From Calditrichaceae bacterium (GTDB taxonomy: Bacteria > Calditrichota > Calditrichia > Calditrichales > JBFXGD01): DNA of 64,000 bases. Shown piece after piece: positions 43,374 through 63,527 of this stretch. Position 1 is the first letter of the stretch; each line of letters starts with the position of its first letter. A program made the translations under genes and the position numbers. The notes below the pieces were generated by a model. That model saw nothing but the letters and a program-made list of their open reading frames with translations, did no database searches and was not told the origin of the DNA. The stretch spans positions 16,721 to 80,720 of the forward strand of contig JBFXLE010000020.1 in NCBI GenBank assembly GCA_050173015.1, given 5' to 3'.

Positions 43374-43687
43374 AAGTCCTCGGTTGATTGATGGTTATGA
43401 AGTTTCAAATTTAAGGATTCAATTTATCAAAATAATTTACAGAGTCAAAAAATTATGAAATTTAAGCAGGCGGAAAACCGATAAGCGTATGGTCAGAAAA
43501 AGCCCACACGTACTTTAAGACGCGGTGGATGCGGTAGTGATTGCGGCCAATATGTATTATGGAGAAATCGGCAAAGACTAAAAGACTACCCCGGCAAATA
43601 TCATCGACAAAAAAACACTCGACCGGACAACAAAAATGCACAAGAATCAGATAGTCAGAATGAAGAATGAAATCGCGCCAGACCGCA

Positions 43688-43885
43688 CCGGGGCGGGTAC
43701 CTCCGCCCCGGGGAAGGTCACACTCTCCCGGGAAGCGTTACTTTTCAAGAAGAACGCAATAACTCACCTCCGGGGAAGGCGATTAAGGTCCCGGGAAAGG
43801 GTACCGGTTCACCGGGGAGCCTCATATTCTTTCCGGGAAGGGGGCCTCGCCTTCCGGGGAAGGTCACACTCCCGGCGGGAAGGCG
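43688..43885. repeat. 21-bp-phased GC-rich CCGGG(G)AAG repeats
   Basis: Core recurs at about 43688, 43708, 43728, then 43770, 43791, 43812, 43833, 43854, 43875. Confidence 0.7.
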
Positions 43886-43969
43886 CAAAACGTTGACTGA
43901 GCGTGAAAGGGAACCATCAGGCTTGCAAGTGGCATGTTATGCAATGATATTCGATTCAATGTGACGGCC

Positions 43970-45341
43970 TGACGTCGGAGGCGTCACAGCTTAGTAGAAT
44001 GGAGATCACATGGTTATAGTCCGACCCCTGCGGGGTCGCGGGAGGATGTGGTGTCTGCTAATATTCTATTAACGTGTAATCCCTACGGGATTGGAATTAC
44101 CGGTTGCATTGGAAGCCATCAATTAATGATAAATATTGGTCAGGTGATAAAAAACCCGACGCCGGAGGCGTCACAGCTTAGTAGAATGGAGATCACATGG
44201 TTATAGTCCGACCCCTGCGGGGTCGCAGGAGGATGTGGTGTATGCTAATATTCTATTAACGTGTAATCCCTACGGGATTGGGATTGACGGTTGCAGGAAA
44301 AGTCCTGAATTAATGATGACAGTTGGCCATGTGAGATAGAAACCCTGACGCCGGAGGTGTCATATATTTGTAGAATAAGGGTTAAGCGGTAATTGTGCTG
44401 AAATAAATTCAGAATTGACAAAGGCGATTCTTCGGGGCGAATTTTCTGTCCGAGTGTAATAAATTGAAAAACGGATAAATTTAACACGAGTTAAAATTCG
44501 CCAGGGCTTTTTGCTACTTTTTGGCCATTCAAAAAGTAGGAAGAGAGAAGTAGGAACTTTAAGAGTTAAGTGTAGGTGCGACCGCCTGGTCACGGATATC
44601 CATTCCTGAAGTAGAGACGCATGTTGCCGATCATTCTACAAAAATATCATCCCTACGGGATTGGGATTGACGTTTTAATCTAAATAAAGGATGGATGATA
44701 ATGATCGGATTGATATGACATGAAGGCCTGACGCCGGAGGAGTCACAGCTTAGTAGAATGGAGATCACGTGGTTATAGTCCGACCCCTGCGGGGTCGCGG
44801 GAGGATGTGGTGTCTGCTAATATTCTATTAACGTGTAATCCCTTCGGGATTGGGATTGACGGTTGCAGGAAAAGTCCTGAATTAATGATGACAGTTGGCC
44901 ATGTGAGATAGAAACCCTGACGCCGGAGGTGTCATATATTTGTAGAATAAGGATTAAGCGGTAATTGTACGACCCCTATGGGGCCGTGGAATCGCGTGTT
45001 GCCGATCATTCTACAAAAATATCATCCCTACGGGATTGGGATTGACGGTTGCAGGAAAAGTCTTGAATTAATGATGACAGTTGGCCATGTGAGATAGAAA
45101 CCCTGACGCCGGAGGCGTCACAGCTTAGTAGAATGGAGATCACATGGTTATAGTCCGACCCCTGCGGGGTCGCAGGAGGATGTGGTGTCTGCTAATATTC
45201 TATTAACGTGTAATCCCTACGGGATTGGAATTACCGGTTGCATTGGAAGCCATCAATTAATGATAAATATTGGTCATTTGATAAAAAACCCGACGCCGGA
45301 GGTGTCATATATTTGTAGAATAAGGGTTAAGCGGTAATTGT
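43970..45341. repeat. array of seven ~125-bp three-hairpin REP/REPIN-like units (types A and B) joined by recurrent ~62-bp linkers
   Basis: Units start near 43970(A), 44157(A), 44346(B, interrupted), 44729(A), 44918(B), 45104(A), 45291(B, truncated); hairpins TGACGCCGGAGGCGTCA, CGACCCCTGCGGGGTCG, AATCCCTACGGGATT. Confidence 0.9.
44397..44617. repeat. insert interrupting a B unit; first ~145 bp repeated at 45342-45484
   Basis: Both copies begin after AATTGT and contain hairpin CTACTTTTTG-GCCATT-CAAAAAGTAG. Confidence 0.8.
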
Positions 45342-45480
45342 GCTGAAATAAATTCAGAATTGACCAAGGCGATTCTTCGGGGCGAATTTTCTGTCCGAGT
45401 GTAATAAATTGAAAAACGGATAAATTTAACACGAGTTAAAATTCGCCAGGGCTTTTTGCTACTTTTTGGCCATTCAAAAA

Positions 45481-45557
45481 GTAGGGAGGAAGAAAAGTAG
45501 GAAGAGAGAAGTAGGAAGTAAGAACGTTATGAGTTAAGAGTGTGAGAGTTAAGTGTA
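45481..45557 (+). repeat. purine-rich heptamer-like tract (GAAGTAG/GAGTTAA)
   Basis: gaagtaggaagtaagaacgttatgagttaagagtgtgagagttaagtgtaa; reverse-complement version at 63809-63866. Confidence 0.6.
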
Positions 45558-45873
45558 ACATCAAGGAAACCCATGGCTGAAGTCGGAAGAAAGAACAATC
45601 TTTCCCCTGTTCATTTCCCTTGATGGAAAAGAACCAAAAGATCATGGCTGTCCAAAAAAATTGTGAAATTCCACGGCTCGCTGCACTGAAAATCTTAAAC
45701 TCGCCCGCCTCGGGCGGGCTCAGAACATCATAGTTTTGCTCGTTCCGTTCATCTTCTTTTTAGAAATTATCCCGGGCGCGTAACTTTAATTCTCATCCGA
45801 CTATCCCCAAATTTTTGATTTTTATCTGATCTTTTTTATAAATTCATTAAAATTACCAGCCAATTAAATAGGA

Positions 45874-46509
45874 ATGTTTTTGAAAAAGTCGGTTATCAGC
45901 AAAATTCTGGAAATTCTGGAGACCACATATAATCACACCACCACCGCGCTGGATTTCAGCAGCCCGTTTCAGTTGCTGGTCTCCACCATGCTGGCCGCGC
46001 AAAGCACGGATGTCAGGGTCAATATCGTTACCAAGGATCTGTTCAGCGATTACCCGACGGCCGCAAAAATGGCGGAATTGAGCAGCAGTGAAATGGAAGA
46101 ATACATCAAAACGGTTGGTCTTTACAGAACCAAAGCAAAAAATGTCATCGCCACCGCGAAGATGCTCGCCGAACAATATGACGGCGATATTCCTGCCACC
46201 CGTGAAGAGCTTATAAAATTGCCCGGTGTCGGGCGTAAAACAGCCAATGTGGTGTTAAGTATCGCGAAGGGCGTCCCAGCCATCGCGGTGGACACGCATG
46301 TTTTCCGGGTGAGTAACCGGATCGGGCTGGCGCGCGCCGGCAATGTCCTGGAAACAGAAAAACATCTGATGAAAAACATCCCGCGGGAAAAGTGGTCGGA
46401 CGCGCATCACTGGCTCATCTGGCATGGAAGAAAAATATGCAAAGCCCGTAAACCGCTCTGTGAGCAATGTCCGGTGAAGGATTTCTGCGAATATTACCGT
46501 ACTCTATAA
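45874..46509 (+). CDS. nth: endonuclease III
   Basis: LAAQSTD..VN; LPGVGRKTANV HhH; VDTHVFRV; C-x6-C-x2-C-x5-C. Confidence 0.96.
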   Translation: MFLKKSVISKILEILETTYNHTTTALDFSSPFQLLVSTMLAAQSTDVRVNIVTKDLFSDYPTAAKMAELSSSEMEEYIKTVGLYRTKAKNVIATAKMLAEQYDGDIPATREELIKLPGVGRKTANVVLSIAKGVPAIAVDTHVFRVSNRIGLARAGNVLETEKHLMKNIPREKWSDAHHWLIWHGRKICKARKPLCEQCPVKDFCEYYRTL

Positions 46510-47368: not shown

Positions 47369-47778
47369 ATCAACTTACAGCCACCATTACGGCCATTGAA
47401 TCATCCGGTCATATTTCGCTGGTTGACCTGAAAGCCGGCGGCGCCGTGTTCAGTTGTGTGGTCATCGAAAATCCGGAATCGGCCGACTATCTTAAGACCG
47501 GAACCGAGGTATCCCTGCTTTTTAAAGAAACGGAAGTATCTATCGCCAAAAACTTCAGCGGTGAGATCAGTCTGCGCAACAGGATCGATTCAGAAATTAC
47601 AGGCCTGGAGAAGGGCGCCATCCTTACAAAAATCACGCTTAAATTTAACGGGCTGGAGATTCGGTCGATCATCACCACCCGTTCTGCGGATCGCCTGGAA
47701 CTAAAACCGGGCGACCGGGTCACCGGATTGATCAAGGCCAATGAAATATCCATTATGCAGAGGGAAACCGATGTTTAA
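47365..47778 (+). CDS. di-TOBE molybdate-binding protein
   Basis: FKETEVSIAK..ISLRN; SIIT..SA..L.LK.GD.V.GLIKA. Confidence 0.88.
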   Translation: MNQLTATITAIESSGHISLVDLKAGGAVFSCVVIENPESADYLKTGTEVSLLFKETEVSIAKNFSGEISLRNRIDSEITGLEKGAILTKITLKFNGLEIRSIITTRSADRLELKPGDRVTGLIKANEISIMQRETDV

Positions 47779-57761: not shown

Positions 57762-58472
57762 CTATGAATTTAATCGTTCAATTTCAGCGCGTATTTCTTC
57801 AAGTATATCTTTGTTTCTTATTTGCTTTTTATCATTTATTTTTGAAGAAAATATAATAAACACCCGACCGCCATAAGCTTCTTCGAACTCATCAAAATTT
57901 TGACGCATTCTATCAGATATTGAGTAATTTCCAAAATTAGCGGTGGCAGTTATTGGTTTGATTTGAATTCCAAATGCTTTGTCATTTACATTACCCAAAT
58001 AGTCAATATCACCTGCGTGATCTAATTCTGGGTCAGATTCAGTAAATTTAACATTTGGAAACTCTTTTGCTAATATATCATTTACAACTGATTTTTCAGT
58101 TACAAAGCCGTCATATGTTCTAAAAATTGTTACTTCTCTAATGTAGTCTAAACAATCTTGTTTTGTTATCTGCTTAAATGCCTCAGACCATTCCGGGATG
58201 ACAACTTCTGTAATTTTTTCGTACAGTCTCTCACCTAATTCTGTTAATATTTCCTCGGTAACTTTTATTTCTTTTTTTGTTTTTGTGTAAGCATTTGCCC
58301 AATAATATTCTTGCCATTCATCGAATGATTTTGGTTGGCATTCTCGAATTAGAGCCATAACTTCGCCAACTTTTTTGGGTCTTGTTAGCTGATATGTATT
58401 ACTCGTGTAATTTAGTACCTTTTCTTTTTTCCCGAATGATTTTGCAACTTTTTTGATCTCATCATCTGCCAT
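57762..58472 (-). CDS. type II restriction endonuclease, MjaI-like
   Basis: TRPKKVG; RTYDG...E; ELD...IDY...GIQIKP PD-(D/E)XK; start overlaps MTase stop. Confidence 0.75.
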   Translation of the reverse strand: MADDEIKKVAKSFGKKEKVLNYTSNTYQLTRPKKVGEVMALIRECQPKSFDEWQEYYWANAYTKTKKEIKVTEEILTELGERLYEKITEVVIPEWSEAFKQITKQDCLDYIREVTIFRTYDGFVTEKSVVNDILAKEFPNVKFTESDPELDHAGDIDYLGNVNDKAFGIQIKPITATANFGNYSISDRMRQNFDEFEEAYGGRVFIIFSSKINDKKQIRNKDILEEIRAEIERLNS

Positions 58473-59760
58473 TGTGATTTTCCAATCCGATAAATTTTGA
58501 TTTATATTTATAATTCGTTTCTCTATCTGCAAAAGCATATCCGTTTTTAATTAAGTGGGCATTCATAAATGTTTTATTTTTAAGATATAGATAGCAAAGC
58601 AGATTGTTCTCATTATCGTATTTTACTACATCAAATTTTAAAAATACTTTTTGACTGTCAACTTTTTTCTTAATGAATTCTCGAGCTCTTCCATTTAAGG
58701 TTTCATTCTCTTTAATGCCTAATAAGCGAATCTTAAGACCCGTATTAAGTATTAGTTTCTCTGTGGAAACGATATCTTTAACCTGGTAATATTTTTCATT
58801 ATTTTTTGAGTTATTGTCAATTTTTGAGCCAAACTGAAGCTTTTTAGGATCTATCTTTTTATCTAATAGATGAGAATCTTTAAAGATGTAAGGCAGATTT
58901 TTAATATCTTCTTTAAAGTCATTGTTCATCTTCGTTTGTTGAGTAAATTCATATTTTGTATTTAGCAAGTCTTGTTGGTCAACATTTAGCTTTCTTTTAA
59001 TATAAGGAATGAACTCGGTATTTAATTCGTAGCCTACTGAATTCCTGGATAATTTTTTAGCAGCTAAGCTGGTAGTTCCACTTCCAACAAATGGGTCAAG
59101 TATAGTATCACCAACAAAAGAAAACATTTTTATTAAACGGTGTGGTAACTCTTCCGGAAACATCGCTATATGGCTATCTTGTTTTGCACCGCCAAAATTC
59201 CAATGCCCAGAAAAATATTCTTTCCACTCTTCTTTTGTCATTTTCGATTGTTCTTTTAACTCTTTATTAGGCTTTTTGGGGTTGCCGAGTTTCTTAAATA
59301 GTAGAATAAATTCATAGTCAATAGATAAAATTCCATTTCTCGGATATGGGAAACTACCCATCACGCTGGCGCCACCAGTAGTATTAGTAGTCGTTTTCTT
59401 TTGCCAGATTATTGCCCCCATATAATCAAAACCAACTGTTTCGCAAAATTTAATTATTTCAGTTCGAATTGGAATGACTTTATACCTGCCATAATATACT
59501 GCTCTTGCAAATTGGTCACCTATATTCACACAAAGCCTGCAACCATTGTTTAAAACTCTAAAACTTTCTTTCCAGACTAAATTGAGATTATTTATGTAGT
59601 TTTCGTAGCTATCATTATATCCGATTTGGTCAGCGCTTCCATAATCTTTTAATTGCCAGTATGGTGGTGATGTAATCACTAAATCAATAGAATTGTCTGG
59701 CAATTCGGCCATTCTTCGGCTATCGCCATTTATGATTAAATGTTTTGTTGAGTTTGACAT
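58462..59760 (-). CDS. beta-class N4C/N6A DNA methyltransferase with C-terminal thermonuclease(SNase)-like domain
   Basis: ITSPPY before LDPFVGSGTT; H.AMFPEEL; C-terminal IRLLGI...YD...LLCYLY...N..LIKNGYA. Confidence 0.88.
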   Translation of the reverse strand: MSNSTKHLIINGDSRRMAELPDNSIDLVITSPPYWQLKDYGSADQIGYNDSYENYINNLNLVWKESFRVLNNGCRLCVNIGDQFARAVYYGRYKVIPIRTEIIKFCETVGFDYMGAIIWQKKTTTNTTGGASVMGSFPYPRNGILSIDYEFILLFKKLGNPKKPNKELKEQSKMTKEEWKEYFSGHWNFGGAKQDSHIAMFPEELPHRLIKMFSFVGDTILDPFVGSGTTSLAAKKLSRNSVGYELNTEFIPYIKRKLNVDQQDLLNTKYEFTQQTKMNNDFKEDIKNLPYIFKDSHLLDKKIDPKKLQFGSKIDNNSKNNEKYYQVKDIVSTEKLILNTGLKIRLLGIKENETLNGRAREFIKKKVDSQKVFLKFDVVKYDNENNLLCYLYLKNKTFMNAHLIKNGYAFADRETNYKYKSKFIGLENHNGR

Positions 59761-59855
59761 TAAAAATCCTATGACTAAAGTTTCTATATTATTTTTATCT
59801 TTGCAAAGATAAGAAATAGAGGATTTGTTTACAATTTAGAAAATTTTAACAAAGC

Positions 59856-60266
59856 ACATAACATATTGATCAGACGTCCATCTTCATTATCATTTTATTC
59901 TAATATTGGAAAACATTTTCTAAATGTAGAAAACTTATTCTAATGTTAGAAAAAAAATATTTCCAATATCAGAGAAATTAACCGTCGGAAACAGTTCGCC
60001 CCTCAGATCAATGGAATAGTGGCTTTTTAAGACACACCCCGAACCATTTGTTGTTTATATTCTTTAAACCGGCGTGAGATGATATCCAAATCATAATCGT
60101 CCTTGTCTGAACCATCATCAATTGTCTGAGTTTTCAACGATTGAAGCAAAAAAAGGGTTAAATAAAAACGTTATCATAATAATCAATTGAAATGGAAATT
60201 TCAAGAGGCTAATAATTTTCGGATATTTTAGCAAACGGTATAACCCATCCCCAATCCTGAAGGGAT
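59856..60266 (-). other. putative attI + Pc module, copy 1
   Basis: Near-identical to 63110-63527; identity starts at the GTTA core; four 14-bp palindromes; promoter at 60176-60204. Confidence 0.7.
60176..60204 (-). promoter_or_regulatory. putative Pc-like cassette promoter
   Basis: TTGAAA-N17-TATTAT facing the cassettes. Confidence 0.55.
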
Positions 60267-60346
60267 GAGATCTTTCTAAAAAACCGGCCACTCGTCGGTA
60301 TCATTGTGATGATGTTCCCGGGTAAAGGGATTGCGATGGCTGTTTT

Positions 60347-61699
60347 TCATTGTATCCGGTATTGAGTGAGTTCTTCGCTGAAATTCCAGTAGGACTTCTC
60401 TTTTCTCGCTCCACTTTTGTTCACCTGATAGGTAACAATGAGGCTCTTCACGATCCCCACTCCCGGAGCGAACCAGAATGTGGATTCGCGATCCTCGTTC
60501 TCGACTTCCCCGCGCCATTGGGCTGTCATCGAAACGGGCAGGCAGTTAAACTTTCCGGCTGGAACTGAAACCTCCATCTCCGTTCCGACCGAAAATTTTT
60601 CATGAATTCTTGCCTGGTGGGGGCCTACAGGAGTCTGTACATCCGTGATATAGTCATTGGTCCATTGTGTTCCGGATTTCAAATCGTAAGGAAAGTAAAG
60701 TGGCAAGGGACTATTCTCATAGAAATACTCCGACGATGCGGTTTTACCGTCCTTTTTTAGAAAAGCGAAGTAACTTCCCGTTAACATGATCCCTTTGTCT
60801 CCTTTGGTGTAAAATTCACCTGAACGCTCTTTATTCTTTGCGGCTCCTTCAATCTCGTTTAATTCGCGATAATAGGAAAAAGCAGAACCTTGTTTCATGT
60901 TTTTTCCCGGGCCGGCTCTCCGTGTGACCTGGCGGACCATCTCGCGGGAAGTAAAGATTCCCGGAATATTCCCGCGCAAATCGTATACCCAATAGTTACC
61001 TTCGTTAAGAGACCAGAAGACTTCCTTGAACTTGTCTTTAGCTGCTTTGAAGTTGGGATCAAGATCGGTGGCTTTTTTGAGTTCCGCCAATGATCCCTGG
61101 CTGTCCAAACGGACCTGAAGCAGCGCCCCCTGTCCGAAATGTCTGTAAGCCTCGATTGATTCCGTGGGACGTTCCGCGATCTTGTCCAAATCCTGTTCTT
61201 TAAGTTCAATATTGAGTTTGGCCGCGAGTCCCCTGACTATTTCATCCTGAAGATCAAAGATACTATCCATAGGGCCTGTCGCTTTTGAAGATTGTATGAC
61301 AGCGCCCGTTTTTACATCAACAAATCGGGAAGTGAGGCGGATGGTCTCGGCGCTCTTTTGATACGCTCCCAGGACGATTATATCCGCTCCGATCAACTCA
61401 CCCACAGATAAAGCCGTTTTCTCATCTATAAGACCTGTAAGATGCAGACTTTGCTCTTCGAGTATTCTCATGAGTTGAAGGCGTTCTATAACAACTATGC
61501 CCGGTATCGAAAGGAGATCAGTTGTGATGGTTTCGGGAATGCCCAGGGAGAGCCAATCCAGATCCTGATTCTTTCCTACGTTCTCAAAAGGTATAACAGC
61601 CACATTTTGGCTTTTTGCATGGGCACCCGGTACGAATTCCAGGATGACAAGCAGAATGAATATTTTATACATTTTAATTTTTACATCGGACAACTTCAA
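60347..61699 (-). CDS. exported protein with CsgG/FlgO/TolB-N-like domain, TPR and C-terminal beta domain
   Basis: Signal peptide; VAVIPFEN..WLS.GI; IER..L..IL.EQ; VPAGKF...WFAPGVGIVK; TTG start after CAGGAGG. Confidence 0.75.
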   Translation of the reverse strand: MKLSDVKIKMYKIFILLVILEFVPGAHAKSQNVAVIPFENVGKNQDLDWLSLGIPETITTDLLSIPGIVVIERLQLMRILEEQSLHLTGLIDEKTALSVGELIGADIIVLGAYQKSAETIRLTSRFVDVKTGAVIQSSKATGPMDSIFDLQDEIVRGLAAKLNIELKEQDLDKIAERPTESIEAYRHFGQGALLQVRLDSQGSLAELKKATDLDPNFKAAKDKFKEVFWSLNEGNYWVYDLRGNIPGIFTSREMVRQVTRRAGPGKNMKQGSAFSYYRELNEIEGAAKNKERSGEFYTKGDKGIMLTGSYFAFLKKDGKTASSEYFYENSPLPLYFPYDLKSGTQWTNDYITDVQTPVGPHQARIHEKFSVGTEMEVSVPAGKFNCLPVSMTAQWRGEVENEDRESTFWFAPGVGIVKSLIVTYQVNKSGARKEKSYWNFSEELTQYRIQ

Positions 61700-61737
61700 A
61701 GAACCTCCTGAATCATTTTAACTATTAAATTCATACT

Positions 61738-61809
61738 GTCGAAGGTCACAAATCAGCCACGAATTCGGAGCGCAGCGGAAAATTTGTCGGCTGCGTTTGC
61801 TTGTTATAT
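61738..61809 (-). other. attC site, degenerate R' (CTT)
   Basis: Minus strand ATATAAC-aagca-aacgcagccg...gtggctgatt-tgtgac-CTTCGAC. Confidence 0.65.
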
Positions 61810-61827
61810 GGTGCTCTGATTAGGTGA

Positions 61828-62196
61828 TTAAACGAGCAAACGGAACCCGCCATACACCATCCGTTCAGCATCAAAGATCGGCTTCGATGTATGAGTCAGT
61901 GGATTGATCAAATCCGTCATCCTTGGGTCGGCCGCGACTCTTTTATTTGCAAGATCACGTGCCTCACGAGATTCGAATGCGACCCATCCAAAGATTACGG
62001 CTTCATCCTCTTTTGTGTTCGCGACATCAGTGAAAGATCGAGTACCCTCTAAATTTGAATCGTCAATAACATATTCTGAATAATCGAGCGCGCCATGTTC
62101 CTTCCAAATCTTCGCAACCTTTTCTACAACTTCTCTATATGTCTTTAACTGATCGCGCGGCACCGGGAGTATGAACCCGTCGATGTAGTTCGTCAT
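61828..62196 (-). CDS. cassette gene: DUF1428 (YbaA-like) protein
   Basis: YIDGF..PVP; W.EHGAL.Y.E; FD..RM.YGGF. Confidence 0.85.
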   Translation of the reverse strand: MTNYIDGFILPVPRDQLKTYREVVEKVAKIWKEHGALDYSEYVIDDSNLEGTRSFTDVANTKEDEAVIFGWVAFESREARDLANKRVAADPRMTDLINPLTHTSKPIFDAERMVYGGFRLLV

Positions 62197-62234
62197 GTTA
62201 TCCTCCAATCTTGCTACTAAACTTTGTGTTCAAG

Positions 62235-62339
62235 CCGTAACGGTCAATACTTAGCCGCCCGCCAGAATTGGATATTTACCAATGCATTTTACGAAAATCA
62301 TCGTACGCATGTCGTGTCGGCTACAGTATTTTGTTAGCA
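62235..62339 (-). other. attC site
   Basis: Minus strand TGCTAAC-aaaat-actgtagccg...cggctaagtattgacc-GTTACGG. Confidence 0.82.
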
Positions 62340-62354
62340 ACTTTTTGTTACATA

Positions 62355-63068
62355 TTAATGAACCATTCCTAAGCTCAGGGCTAAAAAGCCAAAAGCTCCA
62401 AATATAAAGTGAACAATAATAGCAATTGTAGTATTTTTTCTAATTTGAACAATTGCAGGTAGAATAAAAAAAATAGGAGTAGACGCAAAAATCAAATCTA
62501 AACCCATTGGCAAATGCCAAAGTGCCCACAAAATGCCATGAACAAACCAAGTCCAATGATTATTGAGAAGTTCCTGTCTTGGCTGAATATAGCCTCTCCA
62601 TAAAAATTCTTCACCAAATATGTTGAAAAAAAAGAAAAAAGGCCAAACATATAAAATCCAAAAAAATTCATCATTTAATGGCATGTTTTGAAAGAAAAAA
62701 GGAGTAGCATCAATACCAAATTTCGGCATAAAAATTTTAGCAATAATAAAAGATGTAACTACTAGAAGGAGAAAGGTTGATATAGTCCATAATAAATCTG
62801 ATGGAGAAAGCTTTTTAATCCTCATTCTAGTAAGTAGATCTCTCAATTTATATGAGCCAACATCTCGACCACATAAATATAAAGCTCCAAAAAACATTGG
62901 CATCAAGACAATAATACCAACACTAAGAAAGTAAGTTATTTCAATTGGTAAAATTTGCTGCCTGTTGATAATTGGTATTACGATTTGGGAAGCGAAATAA
63001 TTTAAAATAGTCGGTATGCCAAATAACAATATCAAATCTGGCCACTTAGTCTTTTTTAATTCTTTCAC
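62355..63068 (-). CDS. cassette gene: CPBP/CAAX intramembrane protease (Abi family)
   Basis: GEEFLWRG; WALWH; AIIVH. Confidence 0.88.
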   Translation of the reverse strand: MKELKKTKWPDLILLFGIPTILNYFASQIVIPIINRQQILPIEITYFLSVGIIVLMPMFFGALYLCGRDVGSYKLRDLLTRMRIKKLSPSDLLWTISTFLLLVVTSFIIAKIFMPKFGIDATPFFFQNMPLNDEFFWILYVWPFFFFFNIFGEEFLWRGYIQPRQELLNNHWTWFVHGILWALWHLPMGLDLIFASTPIFFILPAIVQIRKNTTIAIIVHFIFGAFGFLALSLGMVH

Positions 63069-63109: not shown

Positions 63110-63527
63110 TGCTAACATATTGATCAGATGTCCATCTTAATTATCATTTTATTCTGATATTGGAAAACATTTTCTAAATGTAGAAAACTTATTCAAATGT
63201 TAGAAAAGGAAATATTTCCAATATTAGAGAAATTAACCATAGGAAACTATTTGCGCCTCCGATCAATGGAAGGGGGGCATTTTAAGGCACACCCCAAACC
63301 ATACTTTGTTTTTATTCTTTAAACCGGCGTGAGATGATATCCAAATCATAAGCGTCCTTGTCTGAACCATCATCAATTGTCTGCGTTTTCAACGTTTGAA
63401 GCAAAAATAAAAAGGATTAAATAAAAACGCTATCATAGTAAACAAAAGGAATTGAAATTTCAAGAGGCTAATAATTTTCGGATATTTTAGCAAACGATTT
63501 AATCCGTTTCCCCAATCCCGAAGGGAT
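63110..63527 (-). other. putative attI + Pc module, copy 2
   Basis: Near-identical to 59856-60266; core GTTAGCA; promoter TTGAAA-N17-TACTAT at 63435-63463. Confidence 0.7.

Follow-up and report, generated by a model that had tools for sequence, protein, structure and literature searches.

A phased palindrome array at an attI-like core in a Calditrichaceae genome and its association with orfX, a small gene of Calditrichota integrons

A stretch of 64,000 nucleotides from a Calditrichaceae genome (contig JBFXLE010000020.1 of assembly GCA_050173015.1; the genome is termed G000 and the stretch is called the window) carries four 14-bp palindromes next to a sequence that resembles the core of an integron attI site. 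A second copy of this arrangement is present in the same window. The genes located between 53.8 and 63 kb are all on the minus strand, separated by sites that have ..TAACAA.. and ..GTTAGRY ends and pair internally, as read by eye. The features are listed in Table 1.

Table 1. Palindromes, module segments and cassette genes in the window. A slash marks the likely crossover point.
Feature	Positions	Strand	Sequence	Remarks
Palindrome unit 1, nearest the crossover	59898..59911		TTCTAATATTGGAA	1 mismatch to consensus
Palindrome unit 2	59918..59931		TTCTAAATGTAGAA	starts 20 bp past unit 1
Palindrome unit 3	59938..59951		TTCTAATGTTAGAA	read in sequence and by consensus scan
Palindrome unit 4, weak	59961..59974		TTCCAATATCAGAG	mirror-image variant of unit 1
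attI-like core and spacer	59859..59897	-	...TAAAATGATAATGAAGATGGACGTCTGATCAATATG/TTA (minus strand)	likely crossover 59859-59862
M leader, conserved non-coding DNA	59975..60175	-		without RNA fold, periodicity, OrfX-profile or integrase match
Promoter-like site, copy 1	60176..60204	-	TTGAAA-17-TATTAT	toward array and cassettes; consensus match only
Second promoter-like site	59866..59893	+	TTGATC-16-TATCAT	overlaps core; consensus match only
Copy 2	63113..63229	-		core 63113-63151; four units at 63152, 63172, 63192 and 63216
Promoter-like site, copy 2	63435..63463	-	TTGAAA-17-TACTAT	
N4/N6 methylase with C-terminal staphylococcal-nuclease (SNase) domain	58462-59760	-		copy 1 cassette
MjaI-type endonuclease	57762-58538	-		copy 1 cassette
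Rce1-like protease	62355-63068	-		copy 2 cassette
DUF1428 protein	61828-62208	-		copy 2 cassette
CsgG-like protein	60347-61699	-		copy 2 cassette

The start-to-start spacing of the units is 20/20/23 in copy 1 and 20/20/24 in copy 2. Units 1–3 of copy 1 have one arm mismatch each, and the weak unit 4 has three. The original prediction had described four such palindromes with the copy 1 spacing and their retention in copy 2, and both read in the sequence as it described them. The consensus, TTCTAATATTAGAA, has five matches in the window at two mismatches or fewer where 0.49 are expected; all five are inside copies 1 and 2, and none of 100 shuffles of the window reached this number. Across the 4.34-Mb genome 15 matches at one mismatch or fewer were counted, where a first-order Markov simulation predicts about 2. 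This is the motif scan that had been proposed, and it places 14 of the 15 sites within copies of the module or array; the remaining one is inside an 827-aa open reading frame. Matches with two mismatches number 41 genome-wide, which is the chance level (~52 expected). A count of three bases on each side of 29 units, in which the inner 14 positions are biased by the way the units were picked, displays T-T before and A-A after the 14-mer. Thus the symmetric element is nearer to 16–18 bp. The array is 36–115 nt from a sharp junction, where the plus strand has TAAC at 59859-62, i.e. GTTA on the minus strand.

Both arrays belong to a ~400-nt repeat (59859-60246 and 63113-63505), which is 89%–96% identical by segment between the two copies. 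This module is found at at least 12 places in the genome; there are 24 own-genome matches at E ≤0.001, and 18 candidate copies were extracted. Read on the minus strand, a full copy consists of a promoter-like site, a leader of ~200 nt (termed M), one to five palindromes, TAAAATGATAAT, and TAACAGAGACGTCTAATCAATATG/TTA. Most copies have a single palindrome unit. The original prediction named absence of the motif from homologous modules as the outcome that would speak against it; the motif is conserved in them. The putative promoter (60204→60176) is aligned in 12 of 12 copies, with the module form TTGAAA-17-TAWAAT, and the array is between it and the crossover, as had been proposed. The second promoter-like site, on the plus strand, would start an antisense transcript at unit 1. 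Pairwise identity in the five four-unit copies is 0.88 for the array, 0.87 for the core and 0.75 for the M leader. Over all 12 aligned copies it is 0.81 for the palindrome segment, 0.77 for the core and 0.72 for the rest including M, a small difference.

The M leader was analyzed for possible functions. A structured cis-regulatory RNA was rejected, as the consensus fold of 12 sequences, with the array excluded, gives an alifold energy of −0.45 kcal/mol in sense and 0.0 in antisense, against −1.01 ± 1.16 for shuffled columns, and Rfam has no match in the window. Coding DNA was rejected as well, since M shows neither 3-base periodicity nor a consistent frame. M is not a decayed orfX (the gene described below), as the OrfX profile matches no module copy except at contig C3, and M gave no match to integrase. 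It should be noted that a hairpin, AATCCCTACGGGATT, is found at the upstream end of several module copies, e.g. at 60247-60268. The same hairpin is present at positions 43400-45900 of the window, 2.4 kb without long open reading frames that are packed with ~187-nt repeats of three GC-rich hairpins (GACGCCGGAGGCGTC, CCGACCCCTGCGGGGTCG and AATCCCTACGGGATT).

The minus strand at 59856-59868 reads CAATATG/TTATGT, in agreement with the crossover core G/TTRRRY. The likeness among the 12 aligned module copies ends after GTTA, at ...CAATATG/TTA, before unrelated cassette genes. From one copy to the next these genes vary: a restriction-modification pair, an Rce1-like protease, RadC, transglutaminase-like and beta-lactamase-family proteins, a KAP NTPase, DUF3800, a DEAD-box helicase and several proteins without an assigned family. 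AttC-like sites, read by eye, are also present between the copy 2 cassettes (60347..63068). Contigs from four other runs display the module and the CsgG-like cassette without the methylase and endonuclease genes, and are unlike the window from 59854-59859 on. The original prediction had placed a putative attI core beside the palindromes; the sharp copy junction at GTTA, the divergence of the other contigs at that point and the finding that homologous arrays head canonical IntI integrons (see below) all bear this out. The assignment of the array and core in the window to the attI region of an integron is well supported by these comparisons.

No integron integrase was found in G000, in that there is no TIGR02249 match at E ≤1e-40; there is a deletion remnant at C3 only. 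This remnant is at a tRNA-Leu(CAA) gene and is an in-frame intI'-'orfX deletion, followed by five TTCTAATATTAGAA-type units, the same core, and cassettes. Another genome of the same genus (G038) has three units at the syntenic place. The C3 array begins ~10 nt past a small open reading frame (P0002), which is a member of the OrfX family. The frame reads ..VKDIDIEYKQIAV/RGQPGTKK.., with the joint at the slash, and is a fusion of an IntI segment (compare ..RVKDIDFEYKQITV in G006) to OrfX at about residue 9. This in-frame joint indicates that half of intI was deleted. Translation from the first start codon gives a 74-aa OrfX fragment that lacks the N-terminal domain. As G000 is without IntI and its sole orfX is truncated, the arrays in the window are probably orphan relics: attI copies on a dispersed promoter-plus-attI module, and probably inactive.

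Intact platforms are found in other Calditrichota. These consist of a canonical IntI, an orfX gene (~112 aa), 3–5 palindromes of 14–18 bp, the core, and cassettes. The core has the form ..CTAAT, 5–8 nt, WWG/TTA... IntI is present in 45 of 86 Calditrichota genomes and absent from G000 and G038; orfX homologues are found at 22 places in 20 of the 86. An IntI gene adjoins orfX in 13 of the 17 loci listed, co-oriented in seven (gaps of −4 to 32 nt) and divergent in six. All nine full-length integrases tested that are beside orfX score 446–488 bits on TIGR02249 (cut-off 265) over the whole model, and one more is split in two. The palindromes vary by lineage (TTCTAATATTAGAA, GTTTCTATATATAGAAAC, GTTTCTGATATAAGAAAC, TTTCCTATATATGGAAA, TTTATGGTATCATAAA) with a core motif that stays alike. 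Two platforms, each with its own palindrome, are found in G058. Two near-identical platforms (L204 and L207, at G058:C148 and G059:C253) cease to match within the core's left box, after GGCAGTCTAA, which suggests that exchange may also be possible at the left box.

Read by eye, 12 of 18 OrfX loci have 3–5 related palindromes between orfX and the GTTA core. G075 has a single palindrome, G026 and G064 one or two, G082 and G083 none, and G078 is ambiguous. A strict detector (arms of 6 nt with no more than one mismatch in total, a gap of 0–6, sites sharing an arm) found three or more sites at 7 of 18 OrfX loci, at 0 of 18 OrfX-less IntI loci, both flanks included, and in 0 of 54 shuffles; the genomes are related and the loci not independent, and this contrast overstates their independence. 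With two or more sites the counts are 13 of 18, 7 of 18, and 9 of 54, respectively. Among 14 OrfX-less IntI loci read by eye none has three or more palindromes, and two have a pair. The array is thereby shown as part of the attI region in a platform with canonical IntI, and it tracks orfX.

G000 also contains remnants, on C5, C9 and C43, of a decayed integrase that lacks the IntI-specific insert (I2-less). An intact 278-aa relative in G024 scores 238.7 bits on NF040815 and 214 bits on TIGR02249, where the cut-off is 265. The module is not the decayed 3′ end of this integrase, as a tblastn search with the G024 protein matches C5, C9 and C43 and no module copy. The I2-less integrase's own site in G024 is a different hairpin without these palindromes: at positions 1370-1465 of L038 (G024:C272), an attC-like hairpin with CACGTTAGGG at its end lies within 90 nt past the 278-aa integrase, and a cassette gene comes next. 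A chimera is found at G000:C5:153511-153789 (L013 1525-1803), where the 5′ part of the M leader is joined in frame to the final 45 codons of the I2-less integrase, with the hairpin site of that integrase next.

Pattern scans were also made of other sources. In genome contigs a first pattern gave nothing, and a second gave five loci, of which two are relevant (L068 and L069). Among the matches listed from metagenomes, most are from one assembly and the relevant ones are L090 and L138. The one assembly (L072-L151) has more than 70 contigs with few long open reading frames, in which the same 14-bp palindrome is repeated in tandem up to 18 times with a period of 21 or 28. These resemble eukaryote-type satellite DNA, and their likeness to the integron motif is probably due to chance. 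A viral scan gave three matches, two of these on contigs named giant-virus MAGs. At positions 2953-3030 of L068, a MAG contig, four TTCTAATATTRGAA units spaced 24/20/20 are located directly after a transposase-like remnant and before a membrane-protein gene, with no IntI or orfX within 3 kb of the array. The transposase-like remnant has no relative in G000.

OrfX is a basic protein of 109–125 aa with a pI of 9.4–10.2. It diverges faster than IntI (35%–58% compared with 52%–71% identity). A word-indexed search gave a family of 33 proteins, and a profile search gave 2,929 representatives at E ≤0.001; the atlas clusters are from several phyla and are labelled just “hypothetical protein”. No Pfam family model matches OrfX, with only a sub-threshold hint of DUF5710 (E = 0.093). 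A partial homologue is found on a Trichlorobacter plasmid with no integron integrase adjoining; the only recombinase gene in view is ~3.7 kb away. With so large a multi-phylum family and a homologue apart from integrase, the link between OrfX and integrons may be a local one.

The AlphaFold model of OrfX, built with 44 sequences, has a mean pLDDT of 85 and displays two small alpha/beta domains. Searches against solved structures (PDB) gave no clear fold match (best Foldseek E-value 0.62, best VIA Z 3.7), although OrfX may still have a winged-helix or other known DNA-binding fold. Predicted as a homodimer, OrfX gives a score of 0.49, compared with 0.00 for the best of three controls; the score is the model's own confidence, from an author-made alignment. 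Of proteins solved as pairs 20 of 30 reach this mark, and of those solved as single chains 1 of 23. At least 91% of contacts are shared between the dimer runs, the partner pLDDT is at least 78, and the predicted interface is a symmetric strand, residues 37–53. A symmetric homodimer of OrfX is supported by these predictions.

A two-fold symmetric dimer, as predicted, suits a palindromic site. The reading that we prefer, and consider about equally likely to be right or wrong, is that the palindromes are sites for OrfX dimers that build a phased complex beside attI. OrfX would bind each palindrome as a two-fold symmetric homodimer, and as ~20 bp corresponds to two turns of the helix, successive dimers would all face the same side of the DNA, next to the crossover. 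From this position they may shape attI for IntI, by assisting or restraining it, in a manner akin to Xis-type factors or the DR1/DR2 repeats of attI1. Alternatively, or in addition, the OrfX array may gate or block transcription into the first cassette. A role in recombination is suggested by the tight coupling of intI and orfX at seven loci; where the two are divergent, orfX comes first in the direction of the cassettes, which equally allows for a feedback on read-through. Points that speak against OrfX-dimer sites are that OrfX matches no DNA-binding fold, that three OrfX loci (G075, G082 and G083) are without repeated palindromes and two more (G026 and G064) have one or two, that the family is so large and widespread, and that the arrays persist in G000 although neither OrfX nor IntI is intact there.

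Four other explanations have to be weighed against OrfX-dimer sites. One is that the palindromes are extra IntI sites that hold additional IntI monomers beside the simple site. According to the parts of PMC8946536 available, attI1 has two direct repeats (DR1/DR2), supplementary sites bound by IntI1 that favour attI1 x attC recombination, whereas attIA has none. As in attI1, extra repeats are found here on the integrase-proximal side of the simple site and within ~100 bp of the G/TT crossover (as given for attI1 in the same parts of PMC8946536); the units are within ~115 nt of the crossover, and in this lineage the half-site TCTAAT is shared with the left box of the core, GTCTAAT. The differences are that attI1 has two IntI1-bound direct repeats and the present loci have one to five inverted repeats (three to five in intact platforms) that are lineage-specific, and that class 1 integrons are without orfX, to which the array is tied here. 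Direct repeats that resemble the core, as would be expected of DR1/DR2-type sites, are thus not what is found: the units are inverted, and arrays of three or more are absent from OrfX-less IntI loci, both by the strict detector (0/18) and by reading (0/14). In addition, the palindromes of other lineages are unlike the core and change while the core motif stays, and abutting 7-bp inverted arms would suit a compact dimer better than two recombinase monomers. Extra IntI sites are for these reasons unlikely. The original prediction left a choice between accessory integrase sites and an operator for a dimeric regulator. The first is weakened by the missing arrays at OrfX-less IntI loci and the shift of the palindromes by lineage; sites for a dimeric protein fit better, with the change that the candidate is the platform-encoded OrfX and not a classical regulator.

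It is distinctly unlikely that the palindromes serve as an operator through which a transcription factor of the host or of a cassette (LexA-like or other) would control the module's promoter-like sites and thereby cassette expression. No regulon is apparent, as all but one of the 15 near-perfect genomic sites belong to modules; no regulator gene adjoins the 12 module copies examined; and the two different palindromes in G058 speak against a shared host factor. The array is nevertheless well placed for such a role, with the conserved promoter-like site (60204→60176) on one side and the first cassette on the other, the second promoter-like site would begin transcription at unit 1, and integron promoters are known to contain LexA and CRP boxes (PMC8946536, parts available). 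As to LexA itself, lexA and recA are preceded by other palindromes, and the array palindrome was rejected as an SOS box: there is no TTCTAATATTAGAA-like site with four or fewer mismatches before recA, and before lexA there is one match with four mismatches. The sequence TGTACTTTAGTACA is found ~30 nt upstream of lexA (G000:C12, about 47430-47480, L195) and a GTAC-containing palindrome before recA; this is a likely SOS box of the organism.

The array could also act without a dedicated protein, as a long hairpin or cruciform of DNA or RNA that aids folding in single-stranded recombination or pauses transcription. As single-stranded DNA the four units can form one ~80-nt hairpin, with unit 4 pairing with unit 1 (the two are mirror variants) and unit 3 with unit 2, and stretches of 170 nt containing this hairpin fold at −13 to −21 kcal/mol in three four-unit copies. 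Such pairing is impossible in most copies, which have a single unit, and in relatives with three or five units; moreover, the crossover is outside the hairpin, and the leader, with the array left out, has no consensus RNA structure (−0.45 against −1.0 for shuffled columns). A structural role of this kind is very unlikely. Lastly, the extra units may be neutral slippage duplicates of one ancestral site, without function in this genome, which is judged quite unlikely. The variation in unit number from one to five between copies, the absence of IntI and truncation of orfX in G000, and an array that is just slightly better conserved than the rest over 12 copies all speak for this. They are to be set against the four-unit layout, one longer spacer and then 20/20, which recurs in separate sources (L138 and L068), and against the finding that three to five units are the rule in intact platforms.

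With respect to known accessory factors, lambda Xis and P2 Cox-type factors bind direct repeats and have winged-helix folds. Like Xis/RDF-type proteins, OrfX is small and basic and its gene is beside that of a recombinase (in 7 loci, −4 to 32 nt past intI), with a phased array of presumed sites by the core; the repeats here are inverted, however, and OrfX has no fold match. In Xer recombination at cer/psi, host proteins (ArgR at a single box, and PepA) act beside a tyrosine-recombinase core as a topological filter. The cer/psi sites have in common with the array a palindromic box for a non-recombinase protein (here a presumed binder) next to such a core. They differ in that the proteins are those of the host and the box is single, whereas the candidate binder of the array is encoded by the platform and the boxes are several. 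Integrons are described without an Xis-type factor in the parts of Cury et al. 2016 (PMC4889954) available. The same parts define integrons by intI, attI and promoters, state that attI is not known for most of them, and already describe integrases that are co-oriented with the cassettes. The available parts of PMC12901181 describe attI and attI remnants inside cassette arrays that act as recombination sites. The modules of G000 resemble such Delta-attI cassettes and inverted-integrase integrons in having attI remnants within arrays (PMC12901181, parts available) and co-oriented integrases (PMC4889954, parts available), and differ by the addition of a promoter-like site and a ~200-nt leader and by dispersal at at least 12 sites of one genome.

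Literature searches brought up no paper whose title or abstract deals with such an integron accessory gene or with palindromes arrayed at attI. We tentatively propose, as a possibility on the doubtful side, that some canonical integrons possess, besides IntI and attI, a dedicated third component: OrfX, a sequence-specific homodimer with a new fold, which would coat the array and control cassette capture or release as an integron “intasome” factor, and would be the first accessory protein of integron recombination. In G000, the dispersed modules that head defence-type cassette blocks are copies of the attI region of a dead integron. More generally, the pairing of the array with orfX would offer a sequence handle for locating attI in environmental integrons. 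The integron scheme would gain a component if a conserved small gene, with its own array of sites, is placed between intI and attI, and the OrfX array might account for how the time and place of cassette entry are controlled in some chromosomal integrons.
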